The notes under the pieces are model-generated. The model was given only the letters and a program-made list of their open reading frames with translations, had not been told where the DNA came from and did no database searches. A stretch of DNA of 58,601 nucleotides from Trichormus sp. ATA11-4-KO1 (GTDB lineage Bacteria > Cyanobacteriota > Cyanobacteriia > Cyanobacteriales > Nostocaceae), in the NCBI GenBank assembly GCA_019358915.1, contig JAHHIM010000028.1, forward strand, positions 1 through 58,601, read 5' to 3'. A program made the position numbers and the translations under genes. This document shows positions 5,339-46,929 of this stretch, one piece after another. Each line of letters starts with the position of its first letter. Positions within the stretch are counted from its first letter, which is position 1.

Positions 5339-5887
5339 TCAAGAATGCCGCCAAAAGCTCTTAGGCAGAGACTTGAGGCTGACAGTTTGTTGTTCAGGTT
5401 TCGAGACTTCTATCGTCTGTGGGACAGTTACAGAAGGAGATAGCAGCAAAGCACTGAGTATCTCACGCTGATGGTCAACATCTGCTACGCTTTGATAAAT
5501 TGTGTATGGGTCTATCTTCATTCCCAAAGGCGTAGGAACAATCTGTAGATATTCGTTTATCGCTTGTAAGTACCAACCGTCAAAATTGCCATTAACCACA
5601 TAAGGACGCAGAGTGTTGAGTAGTTGTATCGCTCTCCTGATTTCCGAAATATTGCGACTACCATCTATCTCAGACTGGCTCTCTTGATAGCCTTTAGCTT
5701 TCTTTTCAGCTACTAACTGATAATATTTGAAAACCGCTCTTTGATTGCTTGCCAAAGAATGTACTTTCGTTTGAGATGAATATCCGACTCTCCCCCATTT
5801 GATAATCAGTTGATTATCTTCGACTTTGGCCGACCAAAACTTGTTGCTGTTACAAACAGCATTGACATAAACAAGGTATGTTTCCAT
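5339..5887 (-). CDS. WGR-domain protein
   Basis: SNKFW...IKWGRVG...EKKAKGY is the WGR signature. Confidence 0.85.
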   Translation of the reverse strand: METYLVYVNAVCNSNKFWSAKVEDNQLIIKWGRVGYSSQTKVHSLASNQRAVFKYYQLVAEKKAKGYQESQSEIDGSRNISEIRRAIQLLNTLRPYVVNGNFDGWYLQAINEYLQIVPTPLGMKIDPYTIYQSVADVDHQREILSALLLSPSVTVPQTIEVSKPEQQTVSLKSLPKSFWRHS

Positions 5888-6039
5888 TGTTTTTACTGTA
5901 TCTGGTTAATGATTCACCACAGCCTGGGCATTGCCCCATCGCAATTGATGCTGTAGTGCTTCCAAGAGAGTTTCAGTCTCTTCTCTGGTTATTCCTTCTA
6001 GTTGATTACAAACATCTTCACTTGTCCGGCGCGTAGCGG

Positions 6040-6264
6040 TTATCTTCCACTACCTCGCTCATCGAATTCTGGCAATACAACAATAGGGCGGCATTTGGGA
6101 GGATGCCCTGGTTGTTCGCCATCCTCGCACCAGGGAAGAGAGGCGCTAGCTGACAAGAGAATCAAAAGACTGGGGACAGAGGCAATTGCTGCTAGTACAG
6201 CTGCACGAATCAATATCCCCACTAGGGTACGATAGCCTAGCGGGGTTAAACGATATGTCAACAT
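6040..6264 (-). CDS. Secreted PatS/PatX-like peptide precursor ending DERGSGR
   Basis: GAGGA RBS, hydrophobic N-terminus with ASA cleavage-like site, Pro-rich linker, terminal ERGSGR followed by stop. Confidence 0.7.
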   Translation of the reverse strand: MLTYRLTPLGYRTLVGILIRAAVLAAIASVPSLLILLSASASLPWCEDGEQPGHPPKCRPIVVLPEFDERGSGR

Positions 6265-6340
6265 TAGCTAAAATCCTCAAAAATTAAGTGGCCACCTCAC
6301 TAAATTGCAGAGGCGATGTCTACAGCAACTCTAGGGAACA

Positions 6341-7072
6341 TCATCGATTAATTAACAAAATGACCGCAGCAACATTAGTGCCACTAGTTTTAAAACTTCC
6401 AGCTTCAACTGGAATAATTTTTGTATCAACAAACTTCAGCCAATCTTTAAAACGTTTTTCGGAGCAGTTGTTTGAGTGCTGCCAGTGTGTTGATGCTACA
6501 CTGACAATGCGTCCACCAGAATTCAGTAACGTATACATTTCCTGAATGTGGACAATATCTTGATTCCGGCTAAACGGAGGATTTGCAATTATTCTGTCGT
6601 AGGTAGTGCCATCATTCTGAAGAAAGTCTGCACCTTTCAAATTAACTATAGATAGCTTCTTCAAAAATGATTGGTTTAAGTCCATAAGTTCGTAACAATC
6701 AACCGTCTTACCCGGAAGCACTTTGTTAATCGCTTTGATTAACGCTCCTCTACCAGCACTTGGCTCTAAAATGCTGTGAGACTTTTTGATATCTGCCAGT
6801 GCTACAATTTTGTCTGTCAGTGGTTGAGGAGTTTCAAAAAATTGATACTCCTTGCTTAAATTACGATTTTCCCCACTAGCTATCTGCATCAATAATTCTG
6901 TTGGGTCTTGCTCAAAAATAAAGCCCGAAACCCTTCCACCTTTCCACTTACCACCAATCAAATTTATTTTCTTCGCCACATCCAGATAAGTCTTGCGGTC
7001 TAGCTGAATGCCCGGAAGTCTAACGATGTTACCTTCTACAGTGCATTGCTGCAATATTTTTTCTACTGTCAT
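6341..7072 (-). CDS. Orphan amino-type DNA methyltransferase (NPPF)
   Basis: FFETP, ILEPSAGRG, IIANPPF; start placed at MTVEK because of the GAGG RBS. Confidence 0.8.
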   Translation of the reverse strand: MTVEKILQQCTVEGNIVRLPGIQLDRKTYLDVAKKINLIGGKWKGGRVSGFIFEQDPTELLMQIASGENRNLSKEYQFFETPQPLTDKIVALADIKKSHSILEPSAGRGALIKAINKVLPGKTVDCYELMDLNQSFLKKLSIVNLKGADFLQNDGTTYDRIIANPPFSRNQDIVHIQEMYTLLNSGGRIVSVASTHWQHSNNCSEKRFKDWLKFVDTKIIPVEAGSFKTSGTNVAAVILLINR

Positions 7073-7138
7073 TTCCAAAAACCTCACATGAAAACTGGGC
7101 GATTGCGTTCTCGCGCAAAAAGGAGGCAATCGCCCAGG

Positions 7139-7448
7139 TCAAATCAATTCAAAATTCAAAATTATTAATTCAAAATTAAAGACAATCAGTCGGGGCAAAA
7201 CAATTCAAAATTATCAATTCAAAATTCAAAATTATTTCTTCTTCATTTTGCATTTTGCATTTTGCATTTTGCATTTTGAATTCCCGTAGGGGACTCACCA
7301 CTGATTGTAGACCACTGAACAAAGTTCAGTGGGAGCCTGTACTCGGAATGAATTAATTCAAAATTATTTCCATTCTTCATTTTGTACAGCCTGGCGGCAT
7401 CCGGAGGCTCTATTTTGAATTTTGCATTTTGAATTCAAAAAAGGTCAA
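7139..7448. repeat. Composite STRR (TTCAAAA/TTTTGCA)n element with palindromic core and a nested short repeat
   Basis: Collinear with the reverse complement of 25315-25785; core ccactgaacaaagttcagtgg; insert gtacagcctggcggcatccggaggctct at 7384-7411. Confidence 0.85.
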
Positions 7449-7472
7449 CTATCAGAGACAATCGCCTGTTTG

Positions 7473-9092
7473 TTAATTCAAGTTAAAACGAGAAGTCCGT
7501 AGAGATTTGCTAGGTCTGGGAGCGATCGCACTAGAAGCAGCCCTGGCAGTTTTCGCCCAAGCCTGCATTCTTTCGACAGAAGCAGCATCTTGGACAGCAA
7601 GCGGTGTAATCGTCTGACGACACGCTTCCAGATCCCCAAGCGTTATCTGCTGCGGTCGGCCTTCATCGAACGCCAGTAGTGCAGCTTCGGCTGCCAGTGT
7701 CTCTAATTCCGCACCGGAGAATTTTGCAGTGTTGGCTGCGATCGCCTCCAAATATTCATCCTCAACGCAGATGCCAAATCGCTCCAGGTGAATCCGCAAT
7801 ATCTGCGCCCGTTCAGGCTCAGACGGCAAATCGACAAAGAAATTTTCGTCAAAGCGGCCTTTCCTCTTGAGTTCACTAGGCAGCGCTGATGGGTCATTGC
7901 AAGTGGCTACGACAAACACCCCGGCTGTACACTCACTCATGAATGTGAGGATATTGCCCAGGATTCTTTGTGAAACTCCAGAACTATCACCCTGACCAGA
8001 TAAGGCTTTCTCAATTTCGTCAAGCCACAAAACGCACGGTGCGATCGCTTCTGCCGTCTTGAGTGCGCGGCGGACATTGCCCTCAGATTCGCCCACCAAA
8101 GAACCGAGCATCGAGGCGATGTCTAGTTGCAATAGTGGTAAATTGAGGATATTCGCAATGTTTTTGGCACAGTGGGACTTACCCGTTCCCGGCGGGCCAG
8201 CCAATAGCACACCCTTGGGTTGTGGCAGATGCAGCGATCGCGCTTCTTGTGTAAACAGTCGCCGCCGCCGTTGCAGCCACTCGCGTAACAAATCGAGTCC
8301 CCCAAAGGGAATTGTTGCGGGTTTACCCAACTCGATGCCCATTTGAGAGAGCAGCCGGGTTTTGTACTCGACCACCTTGGTAATGATACTGGTATCAATT
8401 GTAATGCCAGCACTACTCAAACTTTCTTTGACCGTGAGCCTCAGAAAATCGCTGATTTCTTCTAGCGTTAATCCCAGCGCTGCCCTTGCCAAAGTTTCTT
8501 TATTTTCGTCAGAAAGCAGGATTCGGAAGGAAACTTCCTGTTCGGAGGCTGATTCCTTTAAATACTGCAAGTAAGATTCCAAATGCTCCTGGACTTGTTC
8601 GATGGTCGGTAGAGGCACTTCTGCAAAGGGAATCAGCCGCACCAAAGACTCGTGCAATTCAATGTTTTGTCCTAGAAAAATAATGCGTTTTTCCGTGGGT
8701 TTGAGTCTGTGGTAGAGGTTTTTAACCCTGGTGAGAATTTCCCAACTCAATTGAGGAGAATTTTTACCTACAAAGGGATGAATGTCACCCAGGACAAATA
8801 CACCTACACCATCGAAACTGTTGATGTACTCGAAAATGTACAACAACGGGTCAGCGTGAGGAGGTCTTTTATACTCTGGTACTGGCTTGAAAACCAATCC
8901 ACCGTCATCAGCTATAAGACATTGCTCCAGACTCGATACTCCCAGATTCCAGAAGAACACCGGACTCTCAAGCTTTTCTTGTGCCTGTGTAGTCAACCAC
9001 TGTACAATTGTGGCTTCTTCTGGGGCAAGCACCTCTAACGCCACAATGGGGATTTGAGAATCTAGAGTAGCAAAGATATTATTTAGGTTCAT
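7473..9092 (-). CDS. Ycf46-like AAA+ ATPase
   Basis: GGLDLLREWL, PKGVLLAGPPGTGKS, LWLDEIEK, RKGRFDENFFVDLP. Confidence 0.9.
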   Translation of the reverse strand: MNLNNIFATLDSQIPIVALEVLAPEEATIVQWLTTQAQEKLESPVFFWNLGVSSLEQCLIADDGGLVFKPVPEYKRPPHADPLLYIFEYINSFDGVGVFVLGDIHPFVGKNSPQLSWEILTRVKNLYHRLKPTEKRIIFLGQNIELHESLVRLIPFAEVPLPTIEQVQEHLESYLQYLKESASEQEVSFRILLSDENKETLARAALGLTLEEISDFLRLTVKESLSSAGITIDTSIITKVVEYKTRLLSQMGIELGKPATIPFGGLDLLREWLQRRRRLFTQEARSLHLPQPKGVLLAGPPGTGKSHCAKNIANILNLPLLQLDIASMLGSLVGESEGNVRRALKTAEAIAPCVLWLDEIEKALSGQGDSSGVSQRILGNILTFMSECTAGVFVVATCNDPSALPSELKRKGRFDENFFVDLPSEPERAQILRIHLERFGICVEDEYLEAIAANTAKFSGAELETLAAEAALLAFDEGRPQQITLGDLEACRQTITPLAVQDAASVERMQAWAKTARAASSAIAPRPSKSLRTSRFNLN

Positions 9093-9905: not shown

Positions 9906-10115
9906 TTATTGTCTTATGCGTGTTTGATGTGTCGAAGTATTCCGTAGCTGCTGGGTTTGCGCTTCATCTTTGAAAGTGCGATCGCCCACAACACCCAACG
10001 CTTCCTCGAACGGCTGCGTCGCTTCCAGGCAGGACAGCCCTTCAAAACCCTCAGCTTCTACTCGCACTTCACCAGTCAATTTATCGAAATGTATCAGTAT
10101 TGAGCGTTCCATCAA
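9906..10115 (-). CDS. DUF2997-family protein
   Basis: GEVRVEAEGFEGLSCLEATQPFEEALG; adjacent to DUF1257. Confidence 0.8.
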   Translation of the reverse strand: MMERSILIHFDKLTGEVRVEAEGFEGLSCLEATQPFEEALGVVGDRTFKDEAQTQQLRNTSTHQTRIRQ

Positions 10116-10565
10116 TTACCTCCTAGCGTATTGTTTAACTTCCTGATGTCCGGCAAATGTTAGCCGTAGGGTTTGCACTTGACCTTTGGTTTCTTCGTTA
10201 ATAGTGCATTCGCCAAATTTTTCGCGTAAATCCTCGGCTTTGGCTAGTACCATGCGCTTGCCATACGTCTGCATTAACTTGTGGCTGAAGAAGTTTTCAC
10301 CCAGCCGGGGAGAAGTTTCGTATTCGTCGTGAATTACGTCATACACTCCAGAATTTGAGTTCCAGCGAAAACCGATATCTGCACGGGCTTTGATTGTGCG
10401 ACCACTGATTATGATTTCCGCACTCTGCCCTTGCGAACCACCGTAGTAGCCTGTGAGTAGCTGCGGTGTTTCATAGACCTGGGGTTTGAGTTCTAAGTCT
10501 TCTAAGGCTTGTACCAAACACTCACGATTGGTTAATTTCGTCTTGACTTGTGTAAAATGTGACAT
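10116..10565 (-). CDS. DUF1257 (Ycf35-like) protein
   Basis: MSHFTQVKTKL...L..AL.DL, DIGFRWN. Confidence 0.85.
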   Translation of the reverse strand: MSHFTQVKTKLTNRECLVQALEDLELKPQVYETPQLLTGYYGGSQGQSAEIIISGRTIKARADIGFRWNSNSGVYDVIHDEYETSPRLGENFFSHKLMQTYGKRMVLAKAEDLREKFGECTINEETKGQVQTLRLTFAGHQEVKQYARR

Positions 10566-12353: not shown

Positions 12354-12500
12354 TCAGCGATATTTGGAATTAACAAACAGTCGTTCTACTGCATCCCAAT
12401 TGCAGTATGCAGTTTTGAACAAAGGAGTACCAATTAGGAATTTTGCTCCGATTGAACTCAGCAAAACTCCCAATACCAAGCCGATAGCAATATTTTTCAT
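12354..12500 (-). CDS. Small membrane or secreted protein (48 aa, MKNIAIGLVLGVLLSSIGAKF...)
   Basis: ORF read by hand; basic then hydrophobic N-terminus. Confidence 0.5.
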   Translation of the reverse strand: MKNIAIGLVLGVLLSSIGAKFLIGTPLFKTAYCNWDAVERLFVNSKYR

Positions 12501-19879: not shown

Positions 19880-21363
19880 GTCGGGTAAGGAGGGATACGT
19901 CGCCGTTCCCTCCTCCCCTCAGAACCGGACTTGACAATTTCTCATCATCCGGCTCAAGCTCTCTACGTTTCAGTCTGTTTTCCACTGTGTACATGGTAGT
20001 GGCAGGTTTTGTGAAGATGGAGCAAGTTTGTTTGCTCGTCTGTTCCTCCGTCTGACACTTTTGTTAAGTGGTGAACGTGCAGTTCTTCTCCGTTGAACAG
20101 GTGTTCCCCACATACTGGGCATTCCCAGTTCTGGTTTTCTGCTACTTGGTATAGCTTTGAACCTTTAGCCCAATATATCCTGCCGTACTGGGTTTTTCTG
20201 TTTTCCCAGTATTCCTTTAGTGTGGGATCATCTGGGGAAGCGTTGCCCTTAACCTTTATGTGTCGAGTGATAGGGATGTCGCTTAACTGTTTGATGGCTA
20301 GCGATTTTCTTTTCTCTCGGCGGTCTTGGAAGGTTGCGGTGAATATCATACTTTTATTGCCGAAGGGCTTGAAGTATTTGGCAGTTATCCACTTTAACCC
20401 TTTGTTCGGGTGTCTTTTTATTGACCATCTCCAGAGCGCCCTCCAAAGTTGATAGTCAAATTTTGAGAACATCTCTTTGCTTGCCCCATACCTGTAGTAG
20501 TTTCCCCATCCTTTAATGATTGAGTTGAGTTTTGTTAACACTTCTTCGGGGCTGGCGTGTTTGTTTGTTTTTAGCCATTCCCGTATTTCTCTCAGTTTAT
20601 TTAGGAATTTTTCCTTCTGAGGGAAAGTGAAGCATTTTCCTTTAAGCCGCCTGATGGTAAATCCTAGAAAGTTCACGCCTTCTTCGACACGAACAATTCG
20701 AGTCTTTTCCTCATTTAGCTCTAAGCCTCTTTCCTGCAACCATTGTTTGAGAATTGGGAAAATTGCTTCAATGTCCTCTTTTGTTTCGGCGGTCACAAGG
20801 AAGTCATCAGCGTACCTGATGAATCCATATCGCGGGCTAGGTTTGCTCCGATATGTCTTCTGGTGCTTTGCCTTTGGAGATGAGTGATATACCTTTGTTT
20901 TGGTATATCTTGACAGGAGTTCATCTATTCCGTCCAGCGCAATGTTAGCAAGTAACGGTGAGACAATGCCGCCCTGTGGTGTTCCGCTTTCAGTTTCGTG
21001 GAACATTTCGGCTTCTACATATCCTGCTTTCAGCCACTGCTTAATTAACTCTCGTCCTGGTATTTGACCGATGGTTTTGAGTATGAAGTCGTGGCTAATA
21101 TTATCAAATGCCCCTCGGACATCTGCATCCAAGATCCAGGTGTCCCCACAATTCTGATTTAGTCGTGTGTGACATTGTGAAATGGCATCGTGGCAGCTTC
21201 TGCCGGGTCGGAACCCATAAGAGTTTGCCTCGAAACGGCATTCCCAGCTAGGTTCAAGGGCGTTTTTGACAATTGCTTGTGCGATTCTGTCTTTAATTAC
21301 TGGAATTCCTAATGGTCTTCTTTTTCCGTTTGATTTGGGAATATAGACCCGTCTGGTTGGTTT

Positions 21364-21534
21364 GGGAGCAACGCGATTTTGTGAGGTGCGAAAAATTTGT
21401 AACATAAGTTACGTGGATGGTGAGCGTTCGCTACCTAGAAAAGGTAAAAATAGGGAACTTCGACCTCGGTTTATTAGGAATAAGCCCTGGTAATTGAGAT
21501 ATCAAATCCGATCTCACATTTTCGCGTTGCTCCC
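21364..21534. mobile_element. 171-bp MITE with TIRs and 8-bp TSD
   Basis: TIR gggagcaacgcga (13 bp perfect, 19 of 22 when extended); TSD GTTGGTTT at 21356-21363 and 21535-21542. Confidence 0.92.
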
Positions 21535-21704
21535 GTTGGTTTTGCCTTCCAAAGTTGATAGGTTTCCATATCTCTGAGCAGTCTCACGCGAGCTTTGGGA
21601 GTTAAGGCGGTTTGCTTATCTATTCCCGCCGTTTTCCTCCCTTGATTCTCTTGTGTGACTCTTCGCACTGATAGCAGCAGGTTCGAGTAACTGCGTAACA
21701 TCAA

Positions 21705-21893
21705 CAAGAAAGGCAGAGGGCAGAGGGCAGGAGGCAGAAGGAATACTGTCCTCCGTCTTCTGCCGCGACCACTCGTGAGCAAGGGTTTGAGTCCCCCACT
21801 GAAATCTGTGATTCAGTGGACCCAAAACAGGAGGGGTCAGAATCCCTTTCTGTTTTGTTCCTTCTGCCCTCTGCCTCCTGCCTCCTGCCTTTT
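21705..21893. mobile_element. 189-bp STRR-armed MITE-like element flanked by TCAA
   Basis: Inverted aggcaga/ggcagg versus ctgcct arms, palindromic core ccactgaa..ttcagtgg, TCAA at 21701-21704 and 21894-21897; removal restores LMKLMLR. Confidence 0.88.
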
Positions 21894-22645
21894 TCAATTT
21901 CATCAGGCTTCTCACCCGATTCCATTGCTGTGACTGAGTTGCACGATAGATTCTTTGTCTCAGGTTTCTAATCCGTTTCTTGACGGTTTTCCAGTTAATG
22001 GTTGACCAATCTTGAAAGGGTTCCTTCGTTCCGATGTCTTTTTTGACTCTATCTTTCACGTCGGTTCGATTCCTTTACGCCGATTATCGTTGAGAACCTA
22101 CCAGAAGTCTGCCATCTTTCGATGTAGGGTAAAGTTTGAACCCCTATCCCCAGCGTTACCCAGGGCATTCGCTTTCTCTGGTATCCTTTACCCTCTGAAT
22201 ATTTAGGCTTTCCTTGCGGTCGGCTTACTCTGGTTATCGACCTTTGCCAGAGAATTCATAGGGCTTACCGTGTTTCACGTGTCTGATGATTAACTGTTTC
22301 GGGTTCCAACTTTATTCCGGTAGGAGCTTTGCCCCTTCGCTGTTGACCGTATCACTTCAACAGCCGTCCTACGTACCTTTTGGTCAAGGTGTGTCAGCCT
22401 TATTTCACCTTTTTAACTTAACGGAACTTATGTTGATTCACTTTCGTTAACCCTTAACAGCTCTCCTCTTGCCTTCCTACCAATTTAGGCTATTCGTATT
22501 CAGGCTTTCGTTCCTTGCATTCCATCAATTTCATTACTTACTTTTGATGTAGGTGGGGTCAAAGACCCTTTTACGTGAGGACAGGGCGAAGGGTTGCCCA
22601 GGGAGGTTTCCCTCCAATCAGAACACGCGCCTTTGCACGTCGCAC

Positions 22646-26570: not shown

Positions 26571-26987
26571 ATGAACTGTGCAATTACTACCCTAGAACGA
26601 TGCTGGTATCTCTCCTCTCCTTGGGGTCAACACATTCCGATTCTTGAAGTCAATTTGCTAGAGCGAGTTTACCTCAAAAGTACAAAAGCATTCGGTTACT
26701 GCTGTGGTATTCACTGGCAATATGACCGATGGATCTATGCGGTTGCCTGTGATAACGAAATTTTTCAAGCCACCAAACATCAGATTATCGGCACTGGTCG
26801 CTTACAGGCTACCACTGTGAAAAAACCGAATTTTGTGCTGGGTGAACGCATGATGTTTCGCTCTCAAGATCATGCGACAAACCAGCGACTCATTTGGGGG
26901 ATTCGGCTACTCAATGGGACTTGGTTTTATGTTGTGGAATTGAGTTCCCCAACTTTCACCCAAACACCAGACAAGGTGAATCGATAG
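26571..26987 (+). CDS. DUF1392-like protein
   Basis: LERCWYLSSPWG, LLERVYL, FGYCCG; paralog of 32671-33165. Confidence 0.7.
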   Translation: MNCAITTLERCWYLSSPWGQHIPILEVNLLERVYLKSTKAFGYCCGIHWQYDRWIYAVACDNEIFQATKHQIIGTGRLQATTVKKPNFVLGERMMFRSQDHATNQRLIWGIRLLNGTWFYVVELSSPTFTQTPDKVNR

Positions 26988-27140: not shown

Positions 27141-28700
27141 ATGAGACTAACAGATATTTTGGTAGACATTGGTAATGCTGTTGCTTATTATCCAAAACTA
27201 GTTGATGTCACTGGTGGAGTTTTACCTAATTTGTTCTTATGCCAAATGTATTACTGGCTAGGTAAACAAAAAAATCCTGAAGGCTGGATTTATAAATCTC
27301 AAGCTGAAATTGAGCGAGAAACTGGACTTACAAGAAAAGAACAAGAAACAGCCCGTAAATCTCTTAAAGCCAGGGGATTACTCAAAGAAAAATTCATTGG
27401 ATGTCCCAGGCGCGTAGAGTTTTGGTTGGATAAAGACGCTTTGAATCAGCGTTGGTCAGCTTTTATGAACAATATTGAGCTACCAATTGAAGAAATTACC
27501 AAAGCTTGGACTCGTAAATCCAAAAAAAATGATAGTGAGTCTCGTCAAACTCCCGGCATAATGCCCCAAAAGGACAATATAGACAGCCCCAATAGTGCAA
27601 TATGCAATGCCTTCACAGAGCAATATATATTGCCCGAAAAGGACATTACACAATGCCCCGTTTGGACATACAGTAATGCCCCATCTGGACATACAGTAAT
27701 GCCCCATGTGGGCAATACATCTATATATACAAAGAATACTTCAGAGATTACTACACAGAATGCGCCCCCTAAACCCGGCGCACCCCCCACCCATGAGAGT
27801 GTGTGTGAAGAAAAAACTGGCTTGAAGAAACAACCGAACCAAGAACAAGAACCAATTCCCCAATTTTTCGCTTCTCTTCGAGACGCTACACGAACGTTGT
27901 CAATCAAACCCGAATCTTCTTCTCAACCCGATAACCCCTCGTCCGGGTCTAATCTTCCGGCGGGGTCGTTCGATAAAGGCGAACAAACGAACTATGACAC
28001 AGCCCCAACAACCCATCTGGTACAAGGCATTAGTGATGATTCCAAGCCTCTACACCCCACCCCCAACCCCCAACACCCTATTCTTGACCCATACAAATCT
28101 GCCCAAAACGTGGAAGAACTCATAGAGGCATGGATTACAGACCCCACTGCATTTGCAGATGACTGTGTGCCATTGGTTGTCAAAGACCAAATCAAGTGGC
28201 AGCGCTGGGTGTTGCCCTGGCGCACTCAAGGGCGGAAGTTGAATCACCTGTATCAAAACTTCAACCCAATTGTTGTAGACTTTCTCGCCCAAGAGTTGGC
28301 TACTGGTGGTGCTAGTACAAAAGCCCAAAAAATTACTCATGCGATCGCGGTGATGAATACTTGGGAAAAAACCAAGGGTGGATGGACAAACTTGATGCAA
28401 CGCTATTACCAAGCCAAAAGAGCGAATGCTGCACCACAAAATACTTCTACTCACCTTCCAACTTCAGAAGCTCACAAAAATCTCACACTTTGTGAAGCTT
28501 TATCGCAAGATGAATTGCGCCGTCAACAAGAGCAATCAAAACGCAATTCATCTTGTTCACGACCGCAAACTGTTGATTTAGACCTAAAGTCCAAACTTGA
28601 GCAAGCGGCAAATGCTCAAAAAATTCACAAAGTTTCTCAAAAATCCACTGCCAATCTACGAGAAGTTGAAGCCCTGATTAAACAAGCACTTGGAGCGTAA
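27141..28700 (+). CDS. Phage-type replication initiator (N-terminal wHTH)
   Basis: YYW...GWIYKSQAEIERETGLTRKEQETARKSL; internal iterons; directly upstream of DnaB. Confidence 0.75.
   Translation: MRLTDILVDIGNAVAYYPKLVDVTGGVLPNLFLCQMYYWLGKQKNPEGWIYKSQAEIERETGLTRKEQETARKSLKARGLLKEKFIGCPRRVEFWLDKDALNQRWSAFMNNIELPIEEITKAWTRKSKKNDSESRQTPGIMPQKDNIDSPNSAICNAFTEQYILPEKDITQCPVWTYSNAPSGHTVMPHVGNTSIYTKNTSEITTQNAPPKPGAPPTHESVCEEKTGLKKQPNQEQEPIPQFFASLRDATRTLSIKPESSSQPDNPSSGSNLPAGSFDKGEQTNYDTAPTTHLVQGISDDSKPLHPTPNPQHPILDPYKSAQNVEELIEAWITDPTAFADDCVPLVVKDQIKWQRWVLPWRTQGRKLNHLYQNFNPIVVDFLAQELATGGASTKAQKITHAIAVMNTWEKTKGGWTNLMQRYYQAKRANAAPQNTSTHLPTSEAHKNLTLCEALSQDELRRQQEQSKRNSSCSRPQTVDLDLKSKLEQAANAQKIHKVSQKSTANLREVEALIKQALGA
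27560..27720. repeat. About seven 23-bp iteron-like repeats (putative origin)
   Basis: aatgccccaaaaggaca, attgcccgaaaaggaca, aatgccccgtttggaca, aatgccccatctggaca, aatgccccatgtgggca, plus two degenerate copies. Confidence 0.75.
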
Positions 28701-28702
28701 TC

Positions 28703-30052
28703 ATGCATACTAATCACAACAACGTAGTTTCTTTTTTCCCTAATCACACAACTGACTGTTTGCCCCCACAAAACATTGAAGCTGAAGAGGCCATATTGGG
28801 CGGTATTATGCTAGACCCGGACGCGCTCAGTAGAATTAGTGACATCCTCATTCCCGAAGCTTTTTACATCAGCGCTCACAAGGATATTTATCAAGCTGCC
28901 ACTAGACTTCAAGCTCAAGGTTGTCCCACAGATTTACTTTCAATCACCACCTGGCTGTCTGACCAAGGACTTCTCAACCGTATTGGTGGCAGAAATAAAT
29001 TAGCCACTCTTTTAGACCGTACTGTGTCAGCTGTCAACATTGACGCTTTAGCAGATTTGATCATGCAAAAATACCAACGACGCAAATTAATTCTCGCTGG
29101 CTCAGAAATTGTCCATCTTGGTTACGAAACTGAAACTGACTTACTACAAATCCTTGAACAAGCTGAACAAAAAGTTTTCAATGTCACCCAAAATCAAACT
29201 GATGAACGGTGCAAAGTTCACGGTGCGGCTGACATGGCACTAGAACTTTACCAAAAGCTGGAAATGGGTAATATGGCAGGTGCAAAAGTTGGTTGGTATG
29301 ACCTAGAAGACATCACTGGTGGTATTTACCCCAGTAGCTTAGTGGTGGTGGCCGCAGAATCTCACATGGGGAAAACCCATTTCATGATTTCTTATGCCTA
29401 TGAAATTATGACCCAGCTTGGTTTACCCGTTTTGTATGTCACTCCAGAAATGGACAAAACTCAAGTCAATGCCCGAATGTTAGCTCGAATCACAGGCGTA
29501 GATGCTTCCGCCATTCAAACTAATACCCAGCAACATTGGCAACAAATAGCACAGGGTGTAGCAACATTGGCAGAAATACCTTGGAAGATTTATGAACATT
29601 CTTCCCCCACTCCCATAATGATTGCCTCTGCTGTGCGCCGTGCTATTGCCGAGTTTGGTGGTTCTATTGGTGCTGTGTTTATTGATTACTTACAGCAAAT
29701 TCCTTTGGAGTCCGGCGGTAACATGGCTTTTGAAGTCGGTAAGATTACCCGTCAAATTCGCGATATTGCTAAATCCCACAAAATTCCGGTTTTCTTAGGC
29801 TGTCAAATCAATCGCGGTAATCAAAATTCTGCTGATAAACGTCCTAACCGTCATTTACTCCGCAACTCTGGTGAAATATTTGAGGTTTGTGATCAACTGA
29901 TTATGCTTTACCGCAACTCTGTCTACACCAATGACACCAGCGATCGCACCATTGAGTTGATTGTTGAGAAAAACCGTCTCTACGGCAAGTTGGGTACTGC
30001 AACTATGCTTTGTGATTTGTCCACTTCACGTTTTTTCAATATGGCGAGGTAA
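28703..30052 (+). CDS. dnaB: Replicative helicase, DnaB family
   Basis: PPQNIEAEEAILGG, Walker A-like AAESHMGKT, FIDYLQ, QINR, LRNSGEI, IVEKNR. Confidence 0.88.
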   Translation: MHTNHNNVVSFFPNHTTDCLPPQNIEAEEAILGGIMLDPDALSRISDILIPEAFYISAHKDIYQAATRLQAQGCPTDLLSITTWLSDQGLLNRIGGRNKLATLLDRTVSAVNIDALADLIMQKYQRRKLILAGSEIVHLGYETETDLLQILEQAEQKVFNVTQNQTDERCKVHGAADMALELYQKLEMGNMAGAKVGWYDLEDITGGIYPSSLVVVAAESHMGKTHFMISYAYEIMTQLGLPVLYVTPEMDKTQVNARMLARITGVDASAIQTNTQQHWQQIAQGVATLAEIPWKIYEHSSPTPIMIASAVRRAIAEFGGSIGAVFIDYLQQIPLESGGNMAFEVGKITRQIRDIAKSHKIPVFLGCQINRGNQNSADKRPNRHLLRNSGEIFEVCDQLIMLYRNSVYTNDTSDRTIELIVEKNRLYGKLGTATMLCDLSTSRFFNMAR

Positions 30053-32049: not shown

Positions 32050-32674
32050 ACAACCACAAATACCCATTCACTCAGACATCACCACCTATAACTGCCACCC
32101 TTGGCAATTCGATATCGTCTGTGGGGGATTCCCTTGCAGTGGCACAAGTAACTCCGGCAACCGACAAGGAATTGCTAACCCCAGATCCGCATTGTGGGCG
32201 GAACAATTCAGGATTATCCAAGAGTGCCAGCCAGCGATCGCACTCATCGAAAATCCTACAGGGCTACTCGCTAGAGGAATGGCAACTATCCTCAAAGACC
32301 TTTCCCAAATCGGGTATTTATGCGAATGGGAAACTCTACCCGCATACTGCGTTGGCTTACCGCACTCTAGAGAACGAGTTTTCATTATTGCCCACCCCAA
32401 TGGCTTATTCCACCGTCAACAGCCGACCCCCTGGGCAGACCAAATTGGAAATCACATTGAGGAAGTGCGGTTCTCTCATGAAATCCGAAGCTTTGAACCC
32501 GGATTTTGTGCGGTGGCTCATGGGATTCCCGTTGGGGTAGCTAAAAATATCCCTGGTAACTATGATGCTCGTCGTGCTTACGGTTTGAGTTGTTCTCCAC
32601 GACAAGCTGCTGTTGCTTGGAAACGCATTGATTATCTGTGCAGTCTTTTATCTCAACAAGAGGCAATCTTATGA
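31910..32674 (+). CDS. DNA (cytosine-5) methyltransferase, large (alpha-like) polypeptide
   Basis: LSLFSGIGG (I), GGFPC (IV), IENP (VI), PHSRERVF (VIII), motif X-like RRAYGLSCSP. Confidence 0.88.
   Translation: MISVLSLFSGIGGLCHHGIAVAGLSHKFQVKQFVEISPYSQSQLHHEQPQIPIHSDITTYNCHPWQFDIVCGGFPCSGTSNSGNRQGIANPRSALWAEQFRIIQECQPAIALIENPTGLLARGMATILKDLSQIGYLCEWETLPAYCVGLPHSRERVFIIAHPNGLFHRQQPTPWADQIGNHIEEVRFSHEIRSFEPGFCAVAHGIPVGVAKNIPGNYDARRAYGLSCSPRQAAVAWKRIDYLCSLLSQQEAIL
32046..32540 (+). CDS. Overlapping-frame small (beta-like) subunit of the C5 methyltransferase
   Basis: FPKSG...LLPTP...LNPDFVRWLMGFPLG resembles the TRD/motif IX region missing from the main frame. Confidence 0.65.
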   Translation: MNNHKYPFTQTSPPITATLGNSISSVGDSLAVAQVTPATDKELLTPDPHCGRNNSGLSKSASQRSHSSKILQGYSLEEWQLSSKTFPKSGIYANGKLYPHTALAYRTLENEFSLLPTPMAYSTVNSRPPGQTKLEITLRKCGSLMKSEALNPDFVRWLMGFPLG

Positions 32675-33165
32675 ATAACCTCATCAACACCCTAGAATCC
32701 TGCTGGTACATCTCCCCTCCCTGGGGAAAACAAATCCCGCCGATGGTCATCTGCCTGCTGGAGCGGGTTTATCTGCCTAAGTTCAATGCTTACGGTTACT
32801 GCTGTGGTGTGGAATGGGGCGATAATATCTGGAATTACTCAATTGCCCTGGATAACGAGACTATTTGGGCTTCAGGAATTGAAATGATTCCCACAGGACA
32901 AATTCAATCTGTTCGTGTTGAAAAACCAGTGTTTACGGTGGGAGAACTGGTCAGCTTTCGCCTCGCTGGTGATGGCCCCAAAATTCGCACCATTTTGGGG
33001 CTACAGTTAATCAACGGCTCTTGCTTGTACGGCATCGAGTGGCGATCGCCTGTTTTGCAAGCACCAGGAGGTGAACCCGTCTGCATCTTTCCTCAGTCAG
33101 CTAAAAAGCCTAAGTTCATCAGTAGCCTTGCCTGGGTTACTGATTACGATTTAGTTGGGGTGTAG
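32671..33165 (+). CDS. DUF1392-like protein
   Basis: LESCWYISPPWG, LLERVYL, YGYCCG. Confidence 0.7.
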   Translation: MNNLINTLESCWYISPPWGKQIPPMVICLLERVYLPKFNAYGYCCGVEWGDNIWNYSIALDNETIWASGIEMIPTGQIQSVRVEKPVFTVGELVSFRLAGDGPKIRTILGLQLINGSCLYGIEWRSPVLQAPGGEPVCIFPQSAKKPKFISSLAWVTDYDLVGV

Positions 33166-36846: not shown

Positions 36847-38586
36847 TCAAAACGGATTGTACTGCAAAGAAAAATACAACCCATTTTCTTGCCACGTTCC
36901 TCTGTTGTTTGAGTCTACTGGTACCAAAGGAATACCCCAATCCAGACGAGCAGTAAAGCGATTCCCCTGTGACCACCGCAAACCCAGACCAAGGCCAGCT
37001 AAGGTGTTGGGGTCTGATATCTCTCTTGGCGAATTATTCCAGGCAACACCAAAATCTACAAAAGGAATGACGTGCAATCGACCATTAATATCAGATACCC
37101 GCAGTATTGGTACTTGTACTTCAGCCGATGCCAAAGCGCCACTATCTGTTAACAAAAAATCTTGACGGTAGCCTCGCACACTACCCAATCCCCCCAACCC
37201 CCACTGCTCTAAAGGCAAGAGCGCCCTGGATGCTATTTGCGTATTTCCACGTATGATTAACAAGGTTTCAGGTGCTAATAGCCTTACCCACTGGGCTTGT
37301 CCGCGCCACGCGAAAAAGCGGCTATCAGGAGCAGAATCATTTATGGTTGCATTGAACGCACCTATACCCAAATTAAATTGTGACCTGAGAGCAATCACTT
37401 CCCGGCTGTTGCGGCTAGTCCATTCTTGAAAAAACCTTAATGCCGATATGCGTGTGCGTCCTTGTTCATCAGATCCCAAAGCCGGAAAAGGTAGGCGTTC
37501 TTCTTCGAGAAAAGTAGCCTCACTTTCGATTCGAGATGCTGTCACACCCAGGGCGAATTCCTGAGTGGGAGTTTGCACTATTGGCTGGCGCAATGTCACT
37601 TCGTAGTAGCGAGAAGAAGATTGGATATCTAGTATGTTGAAAGGACGTTCAATCACATTGCTCGATGCAGTACCAAAGTTAAAGGTGAAAGTTCCATTGT
37701 GAGGATTAATAGGTAATGTGTAGCTGGCATCCAAGGCATTGCTACCATCGGTGTTAGCGTAATTTAAACTCAAGTTATCTCCCAGTCCGAGTAAGTTAGC
37801 TTCATTAAGTTGCAATCCTCTTCGGAAACTACCTACTGCTGGTGAGCGCCCATTATCCAGCACTGCTTGGGCACTAAATGTTTTTGCTTCTTTGACCTCG
37901 ACTCTTAGGATACTCTCCCCCGGACGCAACCCGGCTGACAGTTCAGATGATACATTTTCAATTAAAGGATTAAGTTGCAAAAGTTGCAGGGCTTCTAACA
38001 AACGCTTTTCATTAAGGGGCTGTTTCGTGGCGATCGCTAGGCGGCTACGGACATAATTGGAGTTTAACCTTTGATTACCAGTTACCTGGATATCCGCCAA
38101 TTTACCTTCAACTACCTGGATTTGAATTACACCAGACTCAATTTCTTGCGGTGGAACATAAGCACCAGAAGTAATATAACCGTTGTTGATGTATAGTTCC
38201 GTAATTTTAGAACGAGCTTGAAAAACTTCAGCTAGTGAAATAGGCCGTTTGGTAAATTCAGCAACGGCTTGAGCTAATTCTTCGGGACTAAATACTGTGC
38301 TGCCGACAATTTCAAACCTTTCCACAGTAATAGTTTGATTAGCTTCGTCAAGAGGTGTTTCTTCTGGCGTGGAAGTTGGAGGTGAGGGTGGAAGTAGGTC
38401 TATTGGTGGGGGTAATGGCTGTGGAGGTTGGGGTAATGGTTGTGGAGAGGACGAAGGTGGTTGGATATCCTGCGGCGGCGGGAGTCTTTGGGCTTGCACA
38501 GGTTTAAAAGGGATGCTGTTGAGTAGAAAAATACTCAAAGGTAGCCAGGACAATGCAAGCTTTTTGGGGTATTTACTAGTCAACAT
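36847..38586 (-). CDS. ShlB/FhaC/HecB-family two-partner secretion transporter (TpsB)
   Basis: Signal peptide, Pro-rich linker, POTRA (YINNGYITSGAY, VVEG), SVRGY motif, C-terminal Phe. Confidence 0.92.
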   Translation of the reverse strand: MLTSKYPKKLALSWLPLSIFLLNSIPFKPVQAQRLPPPQDIQPPSSSPQPLPQPPQPLPPPIDLLPPSPPTSTPEETPLDEANQTITVERFEIVGSTVFSPEELAQAVAEFTKRPISLAEVFQARSKITELYINNGYITSGAYVPPQEIESGVIQIQVVEGKLADIQVTGNQRLNSNYVRSRLAIATKQPLNEKRLLEALQLLQLNPLIENVSSELSAGLRPGESILRVEVKEAKTFSAQAVLDNGRSPAVGSFRRGLQLNEANLLGLGDNLSLNYANTDGSNALDASYTLPINPHNGTFTFNFGTASSNVIERPFNILDIQSSSRYYEVTLRQPIVQTPTQEFALGVTASRIESEATFLEEERLPFPALGSDEQGRTRISALRFFQEWTSRNSREVIALRSQFNLGIGAFNATINDSAPDSRFFAWRGQAQWVRLLAPETLLIIRGNTQIASRALLPLEQWGLGGLGSVRGYRQDFLLTDSGALASAEVQVPILRVSDINGRLHVIPFVDFGVAWNNSPREISDPNTLAGLGLGLRWSQGNRFTARLDWGIPLVPVDSNNRGTWQENGLYFSLQYNPF

Positions 38587-39890
38587 TATCGTACCCCAGT
38601 GACTACCATTTCAAATTCGGGAGGTACCATAATAAATCCACGCCGTACAGGCTTTATTGGTCTGTTCACAACTAATGCTAATTTCAAACGTGACAAAATT
38701 GTTCCCAACACAAGTTTTATCTCAAGCTGTGCTAAAGCAGCTCCAATACAACGGCGATTACCACCCCCAAAAGGTAAATATTCATAAGGAGAAAATTGCC
38801 TTTCTAAAAACCGTTCTGGCTTAAATTGCTTTGGTTCTGGGTAAGTTTCTGGTCGATGATGAGCTAGGTAAATTGAGACATTAACACTTGTTTCAGGTTC
38901 AAACCAATAACCCATTATTTCTATTGGCTTTTGAACAAAGCGTGAAAAGGAGAGCAAGGAAATTGGATACAGACGTAATGCCTCAGAACAAACTGCGCTA
39001 AGATAAGGCAGTCGTGCTATTTCACTTTTATCTCCAACAGAAATAATTTCGTTTATCAGGTTTTTATGAACTTCTGGTAAGTAGTGACTCCAGTATAATG
39101 ACCACGAAAGAGCAGCTGCGGTATTTTCATATCCCGCAAAAACTATTGTTATTAAAGAATCGCGTACTTCAGTCTCTTTCATTAATTGTCCAGATTCATC
39201 TCTTGCCTCTAAAAGCATAGCCAAAATATTGCTGCACGAAGCAGTACCCTGTTTTTTAGCCTCAGCAATGAGCGCATATAACACTCGATCAAGCTGCTGT
39301 ACCTGAATTTTTAAACTTTCTTGTAATATTGGTAAAATTGTTGCGGATATCAAAGTTAAAGGATGATTTATCAGATCAAACAATTTAAGCAGTTCTTTTT
39401 CAAGTTGATTGTAGAGAACACCTGCTTTTAGCCCAAACACAACATTTAGAATAATTTCCAAAGAAATTTCTTTCATGAGCGAATTAACTACAATAAACTT
39501 TCCCGGACTCCAGCGACTTATAACTTGTTCAGTTACTGCACAGATGATTTGACTGTATTCGCGGATTCGTTCTGAGTGAAAACAAGGCATCAACATCTTT
39601 TTTTGGCGTTGATGTTGCTCACCACTAAGAGATATAAGAGAATTCTCTCCCAGTAAGAAAGTGAGAGAATTAAACTTGCGATTTGGACTTAGATACTCTG
39701 GATCAGATGTAAAAATTTTTTGTATGGACTCCGGGCTACTAAAGTAAACAACCGGAGGAAGTTCATTCGCTAAAACTCTAAAAGTATCGCCATAACTTTG
39801 ATGCCAAGCATCCAAAGTTTCTAATGGGCGAAGGAAAAGCTGGAGAGCCTGAACTAAAGACGAATTTCTTGGCCCATCAAGAGCAGACAT
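38586..39890 (-). CDS. Cytochrome P450 (CYP110-like)
   Basis: EALR, FKPERF, PFGGGNRRCIG heme ligand; I-helix AGYENT. Confidence 0.95.
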   Translation of the reverse strand: MSALDGPRNSSLVQALQLFLRPLETLDAWHQSYGDTFRVLANELPPVVYFSSPESIQKIFTSDPEYLSPNRKFNSLTFLLGENSLISLSGEQHQRQKKMLMPCFHSERIREYSQIICAVTEQVISRWSPGKFIVVNSLMKEISLEIILNVVFGLKAGVLYNQLEKELLKLFDLINHPLTLISATILPILQESLKIQVQQLDRVLYALIAEAKKQGTASCSNILAMLLEARDESGQLMKETEVRDSLITIVFAGYENTAAALSWSLYWSHYLPEVHKNLINEIISVGDKSEIARLPYLSAVCSEALRLYPISLLSFSRFVQKPIEIMGYWFEPETSVNVSIYLAHHRPETYPEPKQFKPERFLERQFSPYEYLPFGGGNRRCIGAALAQLEIKLVLGTILSRLKLALVVNRPIKPVRRGFIMVPPEFEMVVTGVR

Positions 39891-39923
39891 AAGGAAACAA
39901 TTTCTTGATATCGTTGCTTTTTA

Positions 39924-39939
39924 AGTATACTAGTATACT
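39924..39939. promoter_or_regulatory. 16-bp perfect palindrome in the 70-bp divergent intergenic region
   Basis: AGTATACTAGTATACT between the P450 and TpsA starts. Confidence 0.45.
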
Positions 39940-39960
39940 GTATGTCAAGCAATTAAAATC

Positions 39961-42522: not shown

Positions 42523-42763
42523 ACAGCACAAGTATTCCCAGAGATAAAAACAGAGCTTTAAACAACTAGACATGGGCTAAAGCATTCATAACAGAACGAC
42601 TACAGACTACCAGTTTGAAAAGCCTACTTTTGTGCTGGGTAAAGTTAACTTCAAGATGAAAATCCTGATTTTCACTTGTAAATATTTTAAAAATTGTAGA
42701 AACTTAAGGTTTAATACAAAATTTTCCCTGAGTGAAAATTACTCTTGACGGCGGAACCTAATA

Positions 42764-45363: not shown

Positions 45364-46929
45364 TTATTTTTCATAACCTAGCTCACGACGTATTTTCTTA
45401 AACTCAGCACGAACATGTGGTCTAAGCAACACCGCAGGCTTAGTCAATAATGCTGAAACCTTTCCACTCGTTGGTTTTATTCCTTTTTGGTGAAGTGACA
45501 GTGCAACCTGCCGGATCTCTTCATAAAGCTCACTTTTCCTTTTTTTGCTTTCAGCTTTTCGATACTGGCTATGTCTTGCTGAGATTGTGTCGCACAAATC
45601 TGAGCAATGTTCCCGCCAGAAATAAGGATACCCAGTAATTTTCACTTGCCTGGCAACCTCCATCAACGAAGGTGGCGGTAAATCATCGTTTTCTATTACT
45701 GCTTGCAGGAGGGTGCGTGTATTGGCTATTTTTTGATTAAGTCTATATTCCCTATACCGCTGTGAGATAGAACGGCAAATATCTGGAACCCATGCTTTCA
45801 AAACCGTGCGGTTAGTATTGAGTCTCTTTATAACCATTTCAAAGCTCGGTGGCGGAAATTCCTCTAAAGCATCTTGTAGTATTAAAATTACCTGAGGACG
45901 ATTCAGTCGATTGCGCTTCTTAGGGCACTGTATTGGCGGGCTAACAAACTGCTTTAATTCACTAAACCCTATCTCATTCGTTGGAGTTATCAAGAAATTT
46001 GTCAAAGAAGTATTTAGGTGAAAACATATTTTTAAGAGTTGGTTTAGCTGAGGTTTCGCCTTGTCAATAACCCAATTATGAAAGGACGTTTCCGGTTGTT
46101 CAATAATACGAGAGAATGCATTAATTTTGCCACCTGTTACATAATTAATGTAAAGTTTTAACACTTCTTTAATTCTGGCTTGAGGTACTGGAGAGCGAAG
46201 ATAATTTCCGGCTACAAGTAATTGTCCAATATTTCCTACTACCCATAACTGCCAGTTGAGTTCATGCTCTGGTAAAGACTCCAAACTAGAAGAATGCCCT
46301 AACCATCGACTACAGTGTGGACAGTATCCTGGTAAAGAATTGGACTTCAGCAAAGATGGAACCCGTTCACAATAAGGACACTTCTGAAACAAACGAGTCT
46401 GGTGGATTGGGCAGATTGTCACAAGATTAAATGACCAGATGAGTGGATCATAAGCTCCATGATGAGTCAAGTTTTGCATTTCATAACACGTTGGACACCA
46501 TGCTTTAAAGGAGCGAAGTAACCCTTGTGATGCAAGAACTTCCGCCCAAGACAGTACAGTCAAACTGCGTAAATCGTTCCGCAGAGTTAATCTCTCAAGT
46601 ACTTCAATAACGCTTACAACCGTCTTTCCAGCACCATTCAACATACTTGTCTGAGCAGAGTTTCCTCCCCAAATTGCCCTTATCCCTGACTGAGCATCGC
46701 TGTATACAAAGTCAGGTCTAATCAAAGGGGCAATAAGCTTGCCAATTAAAACACCAGGGCGTAATCCATGCTCTTGCGCCAGACGAATAACATAACTCGT
46801 TAAACTCTCCAAGGTTGGTGTTCCAGCCCCAGCAGGCTCTAATGAGTAAAGTCGGCTACGTGGGGGAATGGGAAGTTGCTGAAGATTCCAGGAATCGTAT
46901 GTTGTCAACGAATCAGCCAGCAGATTCAT
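45364..46929 (-). CDS. tniQ: TniQ/TnsD target-selector protein
   Basis: ESLTSYVIRLA, Zn ligands CPTC/CPIH/CPYC/CPHC, C-terminal HTH repeats; 521 aa, TnsD-like length. Confidence 0.88.
   Translation of the reverse strand: MNLLADSLTTYDSWNLQQLPIPPRSRLYSLEPAGAGTPTLESLTSYVIRLAQEHGLRPGVLIGKLIAPLIRPDFVYSDAQSGIRAIWGGNSAQTSMLNGAGKTVVSVIEVLERLTLRNDLRSLTVLSWAEVLASQGLLRSFKAWCPTCYEMQNLTHHGAYDPLIWSFNLVTICPIHQTRLFQKCPYCERVPSLLKSNSLPGYCPHCSRWLGHSSSLESLPEHELNWQLWVVGNIGQLLVAGNYLRSPVPQARIKEVLKLYINYVTGGKINAFSRIIEQPETSFHNWVIDKAKPQLNQLLKICFHLNTSLTNFLITPTNEIGFSELKQFVSPPIQCPKKRNRLNRPQVILILQDALEEFPPPSFEMVIKRLNTNRTVLKAWVPDICRSISQRYREYRLNQKIANTRTLLQAVIENDDLPPPSLMEVARQVKITGYPYFWREHCSDLCDTISARHSQYRKAESKKRKSELYEEIRQVALSLHQKGIKPTSGKVSALLTKPAVLLRPHVRAEFKKIRRELGYEK

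Follow-up and report, generated by a model that had tools for sequence, protein, structure and literature searches.

A 74-residue protein ending in the PatS hexapeptide ERGSGR, encoded on plasmid-type DNA of Trichormus: a candidate exported inhibitor of HetR

We analyzed a 58,601-nt stretch of DNA from Trichormus sp. ATA11-4-KO1 (the window), which is the whole of contig C28 in an assembly of 5.97 Mb and 73 contigs that is 99.9% complete, and found that it carries a small minus-strand gene whose 74-aa product ends exactly in ERGSGR, the C-terminal hexapeptide of PatS. Judged from its substitution pattern, the ORF is a real protein-coding gene under purifying selection; judged from profile comparisons, it is a homologue of neither PatX nor PatS. 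We put at about even the chance that it encodes a convergent, PatX-like exported pro-peptide that would supply ERGSGR to inhibit HetR. An earlier note on this DNA had described the 74-aa ORF with its ribosome-binding site, a signal-peptide-like N-terminus, a Pro-rich linker with two Cys and a terminal FDERGSGR-stop, and all of these are seen in the sequence. The features of the gene are as follows.

6040..6264, minus strand, stop codon included: ORF for the predicted exported pro-peptide ending in ERGSGR (74 aa; dN/dS 0.10 against the copy in genome G140)
6274..6278, minus strand: Shine-Dalgarno-like GAGGA, 9 nt 5' of the ATG
6142..6264, minus strand: residues 1-41, predicted Sec signal peptide or N-in signal anchor (from hydropathy and charge)
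6061..6141, minus strand: residues 42-68, predicted Pro-rich periplasmic part comprising the core PWC-x11-KCRP and a variable linker (from the alignment)
6043..6060, minus strand: ERGSGR codons, with TAA immediately after, at 6040-6042

The product is MLTYRLTPLGYRTLVGILIRAAVLAAIASVPSLLILLSASASLPWCEDGEQPGHPPKCRPIVVLPEFDERGSGR-stop, with C-terminal letters ...LPEFDERGSGR-TAA on the minus strand of the window and RGSGR as residues 70-74 of 74. Compared with the copy in G140, a genome of the same genus, the protein is 95% identical and 16 of 225 bases differ (5, 0 and 11 at the first, second and third codon positions), comprising 12 synonymous and 4 non-synonymous changes (dS 0.24, dN 0.025), and it is the resulting dN/dS of 0.10 that leads us to regard the ORF as a real gene. 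The stretch AGGATTTTAGCTAATG around the GAGGA is identical in G140 in the DNA alignment. That positions 6040-6264 are instead a chance open frame, antisense to or beside real features, is very improbable: the ORF matches no Pfam or PHROG family and a 77-aa antisense frame overlaps it at 6002-6235 (plus strand), but the lack of second-position differences, the fact that 11 of the 16 differences fall on third codon positions when the minus strand is read in this frame, the conserved ribosome-binding site and the similar-length homologues in four further records argue against a chance frame. The antisense frame itself is unsupported.

The N-terminal part of the protein contains R5, R12 and R20, a hydrophobic segment at residues 21-37 and A-S-A at 39-41. 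A 15-residue hydrophobic window (residues 23-37) has a mean Kyte-Doolittle value of 2.57, is preceded by three Arg and no acidic residue, and is followed by S-A-S-A-S and then by an acidic stretch. Residues 21-46 form an uncharged run, and the overall layout is that of a positive N-region with a hydrophobic core of 15-17 residues. Small residues occupy -3 and -1 of a putative cleavage site at which A-S-A precedes S42, and we infer that a signal peptide is removed there, although the long hydrophobic stretch could be a membrane anchor instead. By the positive-inside pattern, a signal peptide and an N-in anchor would both put the last ~33 residues outside the cytoplasm. These 33 residues, following residue 41, include 6 Pro and 2 Cys.

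Relatives of this protein are few. A word-indexed search of 5.8 billion proteins gave 1 match with the single sequence and 4 with a profile, an exhaustive profile search of 1.84 billion representatives gave 4 matches at E<=0.001, and in the Nostocaceae-level set 3 of the 388 other genomes searched contained a match. The profile searches yielded only P0001, P0002, P0003, P0004 and P0005 as relatives; P0006, a repetitive 191-aa protein, was taken as spurious.

P0001: from a Nodularia MAG; named plasmid-borne by its source
G140 copy: from the same-genus genome; 95% identical to the window ORF
P0002 (= L005, in G138): 86 aa; 63% identical over residues 8-67
P0003, P0004 and P0005: 66-71 aa; P0003 named plasmid-borne in a Calothrix strain

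Common to all members in the alignment are a hydrophobic N-terminus and an invariant P-W-C ... K-C-R-(P) core, the invariant columns being P44, W45, C46, P52, K57, C58, R59 and P60. By this shared architecture the ORF belongs to a tiny new family, a signal followed by PWC-x11-KCR, with a plasmid association among Nostocales. Searches with tblastn of 72,556 plasmid records and of 50,697 phage records returned nothing at E<=1, none of 20 pattern matches in viral contigs was confirmed, and metagenome contigs gave only the sequence of the window itself and one weak 18-residue match. An apparent paralogue elsewhere in the genome (C55:70379-70528, E 0.87) proved to be an antisense frame inside a 471-aa gene.

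The three close copies end in FDERGSGR (window), LDERGSGR (P0001) and VNERGSGR (G140), and the ERGSGR ending, identical there as protein, occurs only in these three. The tail codons of the window and G140 differ by one synonymous change (AGT/AGC), while residues 67-68, just before the motif, read FD, LD or VN, with both positions changed. RGSGR is absent from P0002, P0003, P0004 and P0005, with P0002 ending in ...ESRVSGILEQQSISQPKPRR and the Calothrix-type tail in ...NGRESGGLYLPVEVEA; the conserved function of the family therefore does not need RGSGR. A hidden, frameshifted RGSGR in the G138 homologue was considered and rejected, as the DNA alignment shows a diverged tail, RVSGI..., instead. 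By parsimony the RGSGR ending would be a gain in one lineage, although with so few taxa loss is also possible. Homologues that fail to conserve the terminus had been named in the earlier note as grounds for giving up its reading; since the ending is kept in the three closest copies and missing from the more distant members, those grounds are half present.

The ORF lies within a series of minus-strand backbone genes.

5339..5887, minus strand: WGR-domain protein (PF05406, 69.3 bits), the downstream backbone gene; same neighbour in G140 and in a Halotia plasmid
5888..6037, minus strand: 5'-truncated remnant of a backbone gene, its last ~38 codons (...VCNQLEGITREETETLLEALQHQLRWGNAQAVVNH*); intact in G140 and in the Halotia plasmid
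6341..7129, minus strand: N6-type DNA methyltransferase-like gene, directly upstream (phrog_9133, 194 bits; DNA methyltransferase PHROGs)
7473..9092, minus strand: AAA+ ATPase, a plasmid-backbone gene (similar to AAA-family ATPase genes of Nostocales plasmids)
9906..10565, minus strand: DUF2997 and DUF1257 backbone genes (domain matches and plasmid matches)

The block of AAA ATPase, DUF2997 and DUF1257 genes is found in 29 plasmid records (Nostoc, Trichormus, Halotia and Scytonema) at 73-81% identity, each record covering at most 15% of the 24-kb query. Gene order reads WGR, 116-aa gene, AAA ATPase in the Halotia plasmid; WGR, 113-aa gene, 79-aa ORF, RGSGR ORF, AAA ATPase in G140; and WGR, ~38-codon remnant, RGSGR ORF, methyltransferase, AAA ATPase in the window. 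The 113-aa and 116-aa genes, which are the intact versions of the remnant, are 74% identical to each other. In the window a deletion thus ends ~35 nt past the stop codon of the ORF and an insertion lies on its other side, with the ORF intact. In G138 the family member has another place in this backbone, flanked by homologues of the genes that the window has at 11.7-13 kb, and from these differing neighbours we conclude that the ORF is cargo in a variable slot. Conserved synteny, which the earlier note had proposed to look for, was not found, given that the methyltransferase-like gene of the window is absent from the G140 locus and that the gene has another location in G138. In the window, the slot of the G138 member is occupied by a 48-aa ORF (12354-12500, minus strand) with a signal-like N-terminus (MKNIAIGLVLGVLLSSIGA...), which has no similarity to the PWC-KCR family by eye and no NCBIfam match.

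Between 5 and 36 kb, the window contains an O-like replication initiator, a DnaB helicase, Bro-N/Ant, several methyltransferases and DUF5131, and Pfam and PHROG scans of this part detected no virion (structural phage) genes. Two DUF1392 genes, at 26571-26987 and 32638-33165 (plus strand), flank both the replication module (O-like initiator at 27141-28700, DnaB at 28703-30052) and a C5 cytosine methylase, an arrangement typical of accessory replicons in its content. At 19963-22059 (minus strand) lies a 480-aa group II intron reverse transcriptase/maturase that includes an HNH domain, and a separate RVT_N fragment ORF upstream of it may mean a split or frameshifted intron protein. Further on, positions 36847-45256 hold a two-partner secretion pair, a ShlB/FhaC-type transporter and an 853-aa TPS-domain exoprotein, with a cytochrome P450 between the two and a TPR-CHAT protein after them. 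A Tn7-like transposition module (45364-50820, minus strand) encodes a TniB-like ATPase, a TniQ protein and a 903-aa transposase in which TnsA-like and rve parts are fused, and the 36-58 kb part also includes a STAND NTPase and a kinase. No housekeeping genes were seen from 5 to 58 kb, and no het-related neighbours were found among 57 window ORFs scanned with Pfam or 30 scanned with NCBIfam. Together, this gene content fits plasmid-type accessory DNA and does not fit a phage. The ORF had earlier been placed outside any het/pat context, in a phage- or plasmid-like operon between a methyltransferase and a WGR protein: the context is confirmed by the locations of canonical patS (C31) and patX (C72), and the two neighbours and the plasmid-type backbone stand, whereas the phage part of that description falls in the absence of structural phage genes nearby.

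The remaining parts of a HetR circuit are encoded elsewhere in the genome. The hetR gene lies on C16, and its product aligns over all 299 residues to solved Anabaena HetR chains with few substitutions, hood domain included; we take two of the structures with HetR chains, 4YRV and 4YNL, to contain PatS-6. Canonical patS ends in ...MKTTIFVNFLDERGSGR-stop with TCCGGA ~630 nt upstream, canonical patX (C72:3792-4034) scores 86.9 bits against NF047413 (cut-off 30) with TCCGGA 58 nt upstream, and a PatP-type Peptidase_S13 gene is present (390 bits). A six-frame scan of the genome found 21 occurrences of RG[ST]GR, none in a frame longer than 126 aa, and this 99.9%-complete assembly therefore has no HetN-type carrier. 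NF047414, tried as a model for HetN, is an unrelated family. Against the PatX model NF047413 the ORF has no match even at E<=10, and against the PatS model NF047415 it reaches 13.6 bits, below the cut-off of 30, over tail residues 68-74 only; this sub-threshold match is its sole one in NCBIfam. The label PatS/PatX-like given to it in the earlier note is accordingly apt for the exact PatS-6 hexapeptide and for a PatX-like layout, but not for homology to either model.

How often such a tail arises by chance was estimated from the six-frame stop-to-stop ORFs of this genome that reach 60 aa, 19,964 in number. Of these, 3 end in one of the 30 composition-matched permutations of RGSGR, or 0.1 per permutation, so that about one genome in ten would have an ORF with a terminal RGSGR, which is not rare; RGSGR at any position is not enriched (15 occurrences versus a mean of 11.9). 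A terminal RGSGR with a preceding E, export signals and proven coding status would be much rarer, though not negligible across ~390 genomes. At a dS of 0.24, the neutral expectation is 2.6, 3.2 and 3.7 replacements for RGSGR, ERGSGR and ERGSGR plus stop, and none is seen in the tail between the window and G140 (P = 0.078, 0.041 and 0.024, respectively). Retention of the tail is a suggestive but not a strong sign of selection, and the test is weak because only three close copies (95% identical) carry it.

Across the taxonomic family, a degenerate ERG(S/T)GR-stop pattern matched in 294 of 389 genomes, and 26 of 30 loci examined encode RG[ST]GR-stop; these 26 are patS-type mini-ORFs, the longest being a 32-aa ORF (L017), and the architecture of the window ORF is seen in none of them. 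Besides patS, two or three true ERGSGR-stop sites occur in each of G013 (C49, C61, C179), G014 (C1:511304, 3597102) and G097 (C1:3309131, 4345874), and L017 is an example of an extra site, a 32-aa ORF with the sequence MMLIAIARRKPYNRCNSPSAASPQFLERGSGR. Extra RGSGR mini-genes may thus be commoner than the picture of three inhibitors suggests.

Regulation of the ORF was examined through the DIF1-type motif TCCGGA, which is described as a promoter element centred around position -35 relative to the transcription start of the gene that it serves (PMC7377430). The sites upstream of canonical patS and patX agree with the DIF1 placement in the literature. One site is present in the window.

7400..7405, no strand assigned: the sole TCCGGA of the window, 1136 nt 5' of the ORF start and before the methyltransferase gene

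The motif is depleted in the window (1 versus 7.5 expected from shuffles) and occurs 439 times in the genome, or once per 13.6 kb. The single copy sits in a repeat-rich spacer of 343 nt that separates the AAA ATPase from the methyltransferase (7130-7472, with runs of AAAATGC and TTTTGAATT units), where its chance of occurring is ~2.5%, rising to ~8% within 1.2 kb upstream, and the G140 locus (L004) has none within ~1.5 kb. Sigma-70-like hexamers lie just 5' of TCCGGA. The 76 nt that precede the ORF contain none, and the ORF has no proximal DIF1 promoter. The simplest reading is that the ORF is co-transcribed with the backbone genes; a DIF1-driven transcript, in this strain only, is possible.

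If the protein works like PatX, its positive-inside N-terminus and hydrophobic segment would carry the C-terminal 33 residues across the plasma membrane, where a periplasmic peptidase, the PatP-type S13 enzyme being the obvious candidate, would trim it and free ERGSGR or RGSGR. The freed peptide would then reach neighbouring cells, bind the hood domain of HetR and block its DNA binding, and heterocyst formation would be lowered or reshaped. The ORF would be a third source of RGSGR beside chromosomal patS and patX, in an assembly without a HetN-type RGSGR protein, and it would have reached the PatX mode of action by convergence rather than descent, its tail having become (D/N)ERGSGR-stop in one lineage. 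According to one study, PatX is exported by a Sec signal and needs both export and the periplasmic S13 peptidase PatP, it acts on HetR as the free hexapeptide, and the criteria for PatX are a Sec/SPI signal peptide and no transmembrane helix (PMC12756182). Added RGSGR or ERGSGR inhibits heterocyst differentiation (PMC7761841).

We hold the PatX-like reading at the even level given above because a predicted export signal, a spacer and a terminal motif are combined on an unrelated scaffold in a genome that has both the peptidase and a near-identical HetR. Counted in its favor are the purifying selection, a tail unchanged though flanking residues vary, survival of the nearby deletion, placement of the C-terminus outside the cell by charge and hydropathy, the full-length HetR and the Peptidase_S13; counted against it are the distant members without RGSGR, the ~0.1 chance per genome and the lack of a nearby DIF1. 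Recognition by PatP is not assured, because the peptide has no match to the PatX model, and the PatX-like reading depends on processing, because full-length PatX without its signal does not bind HetR (PMC12756182). Steady expression from a backbone operon would, we expect, harm diazotrophic growth. A complex prediction for two HetR hood domains and the 33-residue mature peptide, run without controls, gave a score of 0.15 and a mark of 0.34. Export, cleavage, release, inhibition of HetR and an effect on the pattern are all inferred here from sequence.

A serious competing explanation, which we consider somewhat unlikely, is that the tail is fortuitous: the real role would lie in the secreted Cys-loop core, in a plasmid-related envelope or peptide function, and ERGSGR would be a neutral accident of a rapidly changing tail, on a peptide that may escape trimming to the free hexapeptide, may fail to enter cells or may be present at a negligible level. 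Such an accident would be consistent with a core kept across all members whose tails are unrelated, with an expectation of 0.1 per genome for a composition-matched terminal 5-mer, with tail-conservation P values of just 0.02 to 0.08 from three close copies, with the missing proximal DIF1 motif and with the position of the ORF outside the PatX and PatS families. It sits less well with a six-residue match placed exactly at the C-terminus, extending to seven or eight residues in two copies (FDERGSGR and LDERGSGR), and with an ending that has stayed intact over a dS of 0.24 and through a nearby deletion. Moreover, externally supplied peptide inhibits the master regulator of the organism (PMC7761841), and an effect would be hard to avoid if this peptide is made and exported.

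Motive is a separate matter. The earlier note proposed that the element suppresses differentiation into heterocysts, a dead end for it, and we think it quite unlikely that the gene serves such selfish manipulation, whether by keeping cells vegetative against the interest of the host, so that the element avoids being trapped in terminal heterocysts, or by sabotaging differentiation in competing filaments without the element. The setting would suit it, as the ORF occupies a variable cargo slot on accessory plasmid-type DNA, its named relatives are annotated as plasmid-borne and a second, unrelated RGSGR-ending ORF lies inside a prophage of the same genome. However, by our reasoning the motive is weak because plasmid and chromosome share the heterocyst fate in a clonal filament, so the dead end does not set the two apart, and a block of nitrogen fixation brings no benefit to a large plasmid that is inherited vertically. 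Neither conjugation nor lysis genes were seen next to the ORF, no immunity gene (for example, a HetL-like pentapeptide-repeat protein) was seen among the Pfam-scanned window ORFs, and the prophage ORF is an orphan. The latter (C55:93081-93224, plus strand; = L043:3081-3224) encodes a highly charged 47-aa protein with no signal peptide that ends in ...EAAEKDSRGSGR-stop, and it adjoins tail tube (phrog_5102) and neck/tail completion (phrog_5) genes. Neither the 388 other genomes of the taxonomic family nor the phage records yielded a relative, and its RGSGR tail may therefore be due to chance.

The founding survey of PatX is reportedly that of Elhai and Khudyakov 2018, which may bear on extra RGSGR carriers. 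In the literature covered here, namely titles, the starts of abstracts and passages of PMC9284123, we found no plasmid- or phage-borne RGSGR peptide. PMC7761841 names three RG(S/T)GR inhibitors of HetR, PatS, PatX and HetN, with the motif as their only shared feature. Another survey of PatX was seeded with NF047413 and has one PatX per covered Nodularia genome (Table S3 of PMC12756182); surveys seeded in this way would not detect the protein described here, because it has no match to NF047413. If the PatX-like reading is true, the ORF is a fourth, sequence-unrelated carrier, convergent evolution can place the morphogen motif on an exported scaffold, and strains could differ in heterocyst patterning depending on the accessory DNA that they carry. 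With only an export signal and a terminal motif shared with PatX, the ORF is also a natural test of what PatP-type maturation needs. A broader proposal, which we regard as unlikely, is that accessory replicons of heterocyst-formers repeatedly evolve or capture RGSGR morphogen peptides, retuning or hijacking host development, with the plasmid ORF and the prophage ORF possibly as fitting cases; heterocyst frequency would then be a plasmid-dependent, horizontally transferable trait, or a weapon against element-free filaments.

Among the closest known systems, PatX (NF047413; Asl2332 of Anabaena/Nostoc PCC 7120) is alike in layout. It is also small (77-80 aa versus 74 aa), and the ORF resembles it in a predicted N-terminal export signal, a Pro-containing middle and an RG(S/T)GR near the C-terminus, but no sequence relationship between the two is detectable. 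PatX of this genome has HRGSGR followed by 14 more residues whereas the ORF has ERGSGR at the very end, and the ORF further differs in its two conserved Cys, in having no TCCGGA close upstream and in its plasmid-type rather than chromosomal context.

PatS shares with the ORF an identical C-terminal (D)ERGSGR-stop, with FLDERGSGR in PatS of this genome, EFDERGSGR in the ORF and ELDERGSGR in P0001. PatS, however, is a mini-peptide (13-17 residues) that lacks a signal peptide; the ORF encodes 74 aa, a predicted signal peptide included, and has no DIF1 promoter at a patS-like distance. Their DNA is alike only over ~24 nt of the tail. Capture of the tail from patS by recombination was considered and is unsupported, given that similarity stops at the coding tail and that synonymous positions all differ.

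The RGSGR motif of HetN is internal to a long, enzyme-like protein that resembles ketoacyl reductases. The likeness is one of role: HetN adds to PatS and PatX as an RGSGR source in PCC 7120 (PMC7761841), and the ORF would likewise be the third such source here. The difference is one of form, as the ORF has only 74 aa and no Pfam domain of that kind.

The Phr pro-peptides of Rap-Phr cassettes on Bacillus plasmids and phages are short Sec-exported precursors that carry an active pentapeptide at the C-terminal end, which is freed by extracellular proteases and then enters cells and switches off a developmental regulator. Phr works alike in outline, and on accessory DNA, to what we propose for the ORF, although organism, sequence and target are unrelated. 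Unlike in Rap-Phr, no cognate receptor gene lies beside the ORF, because its target, HetR, is chromosomal.
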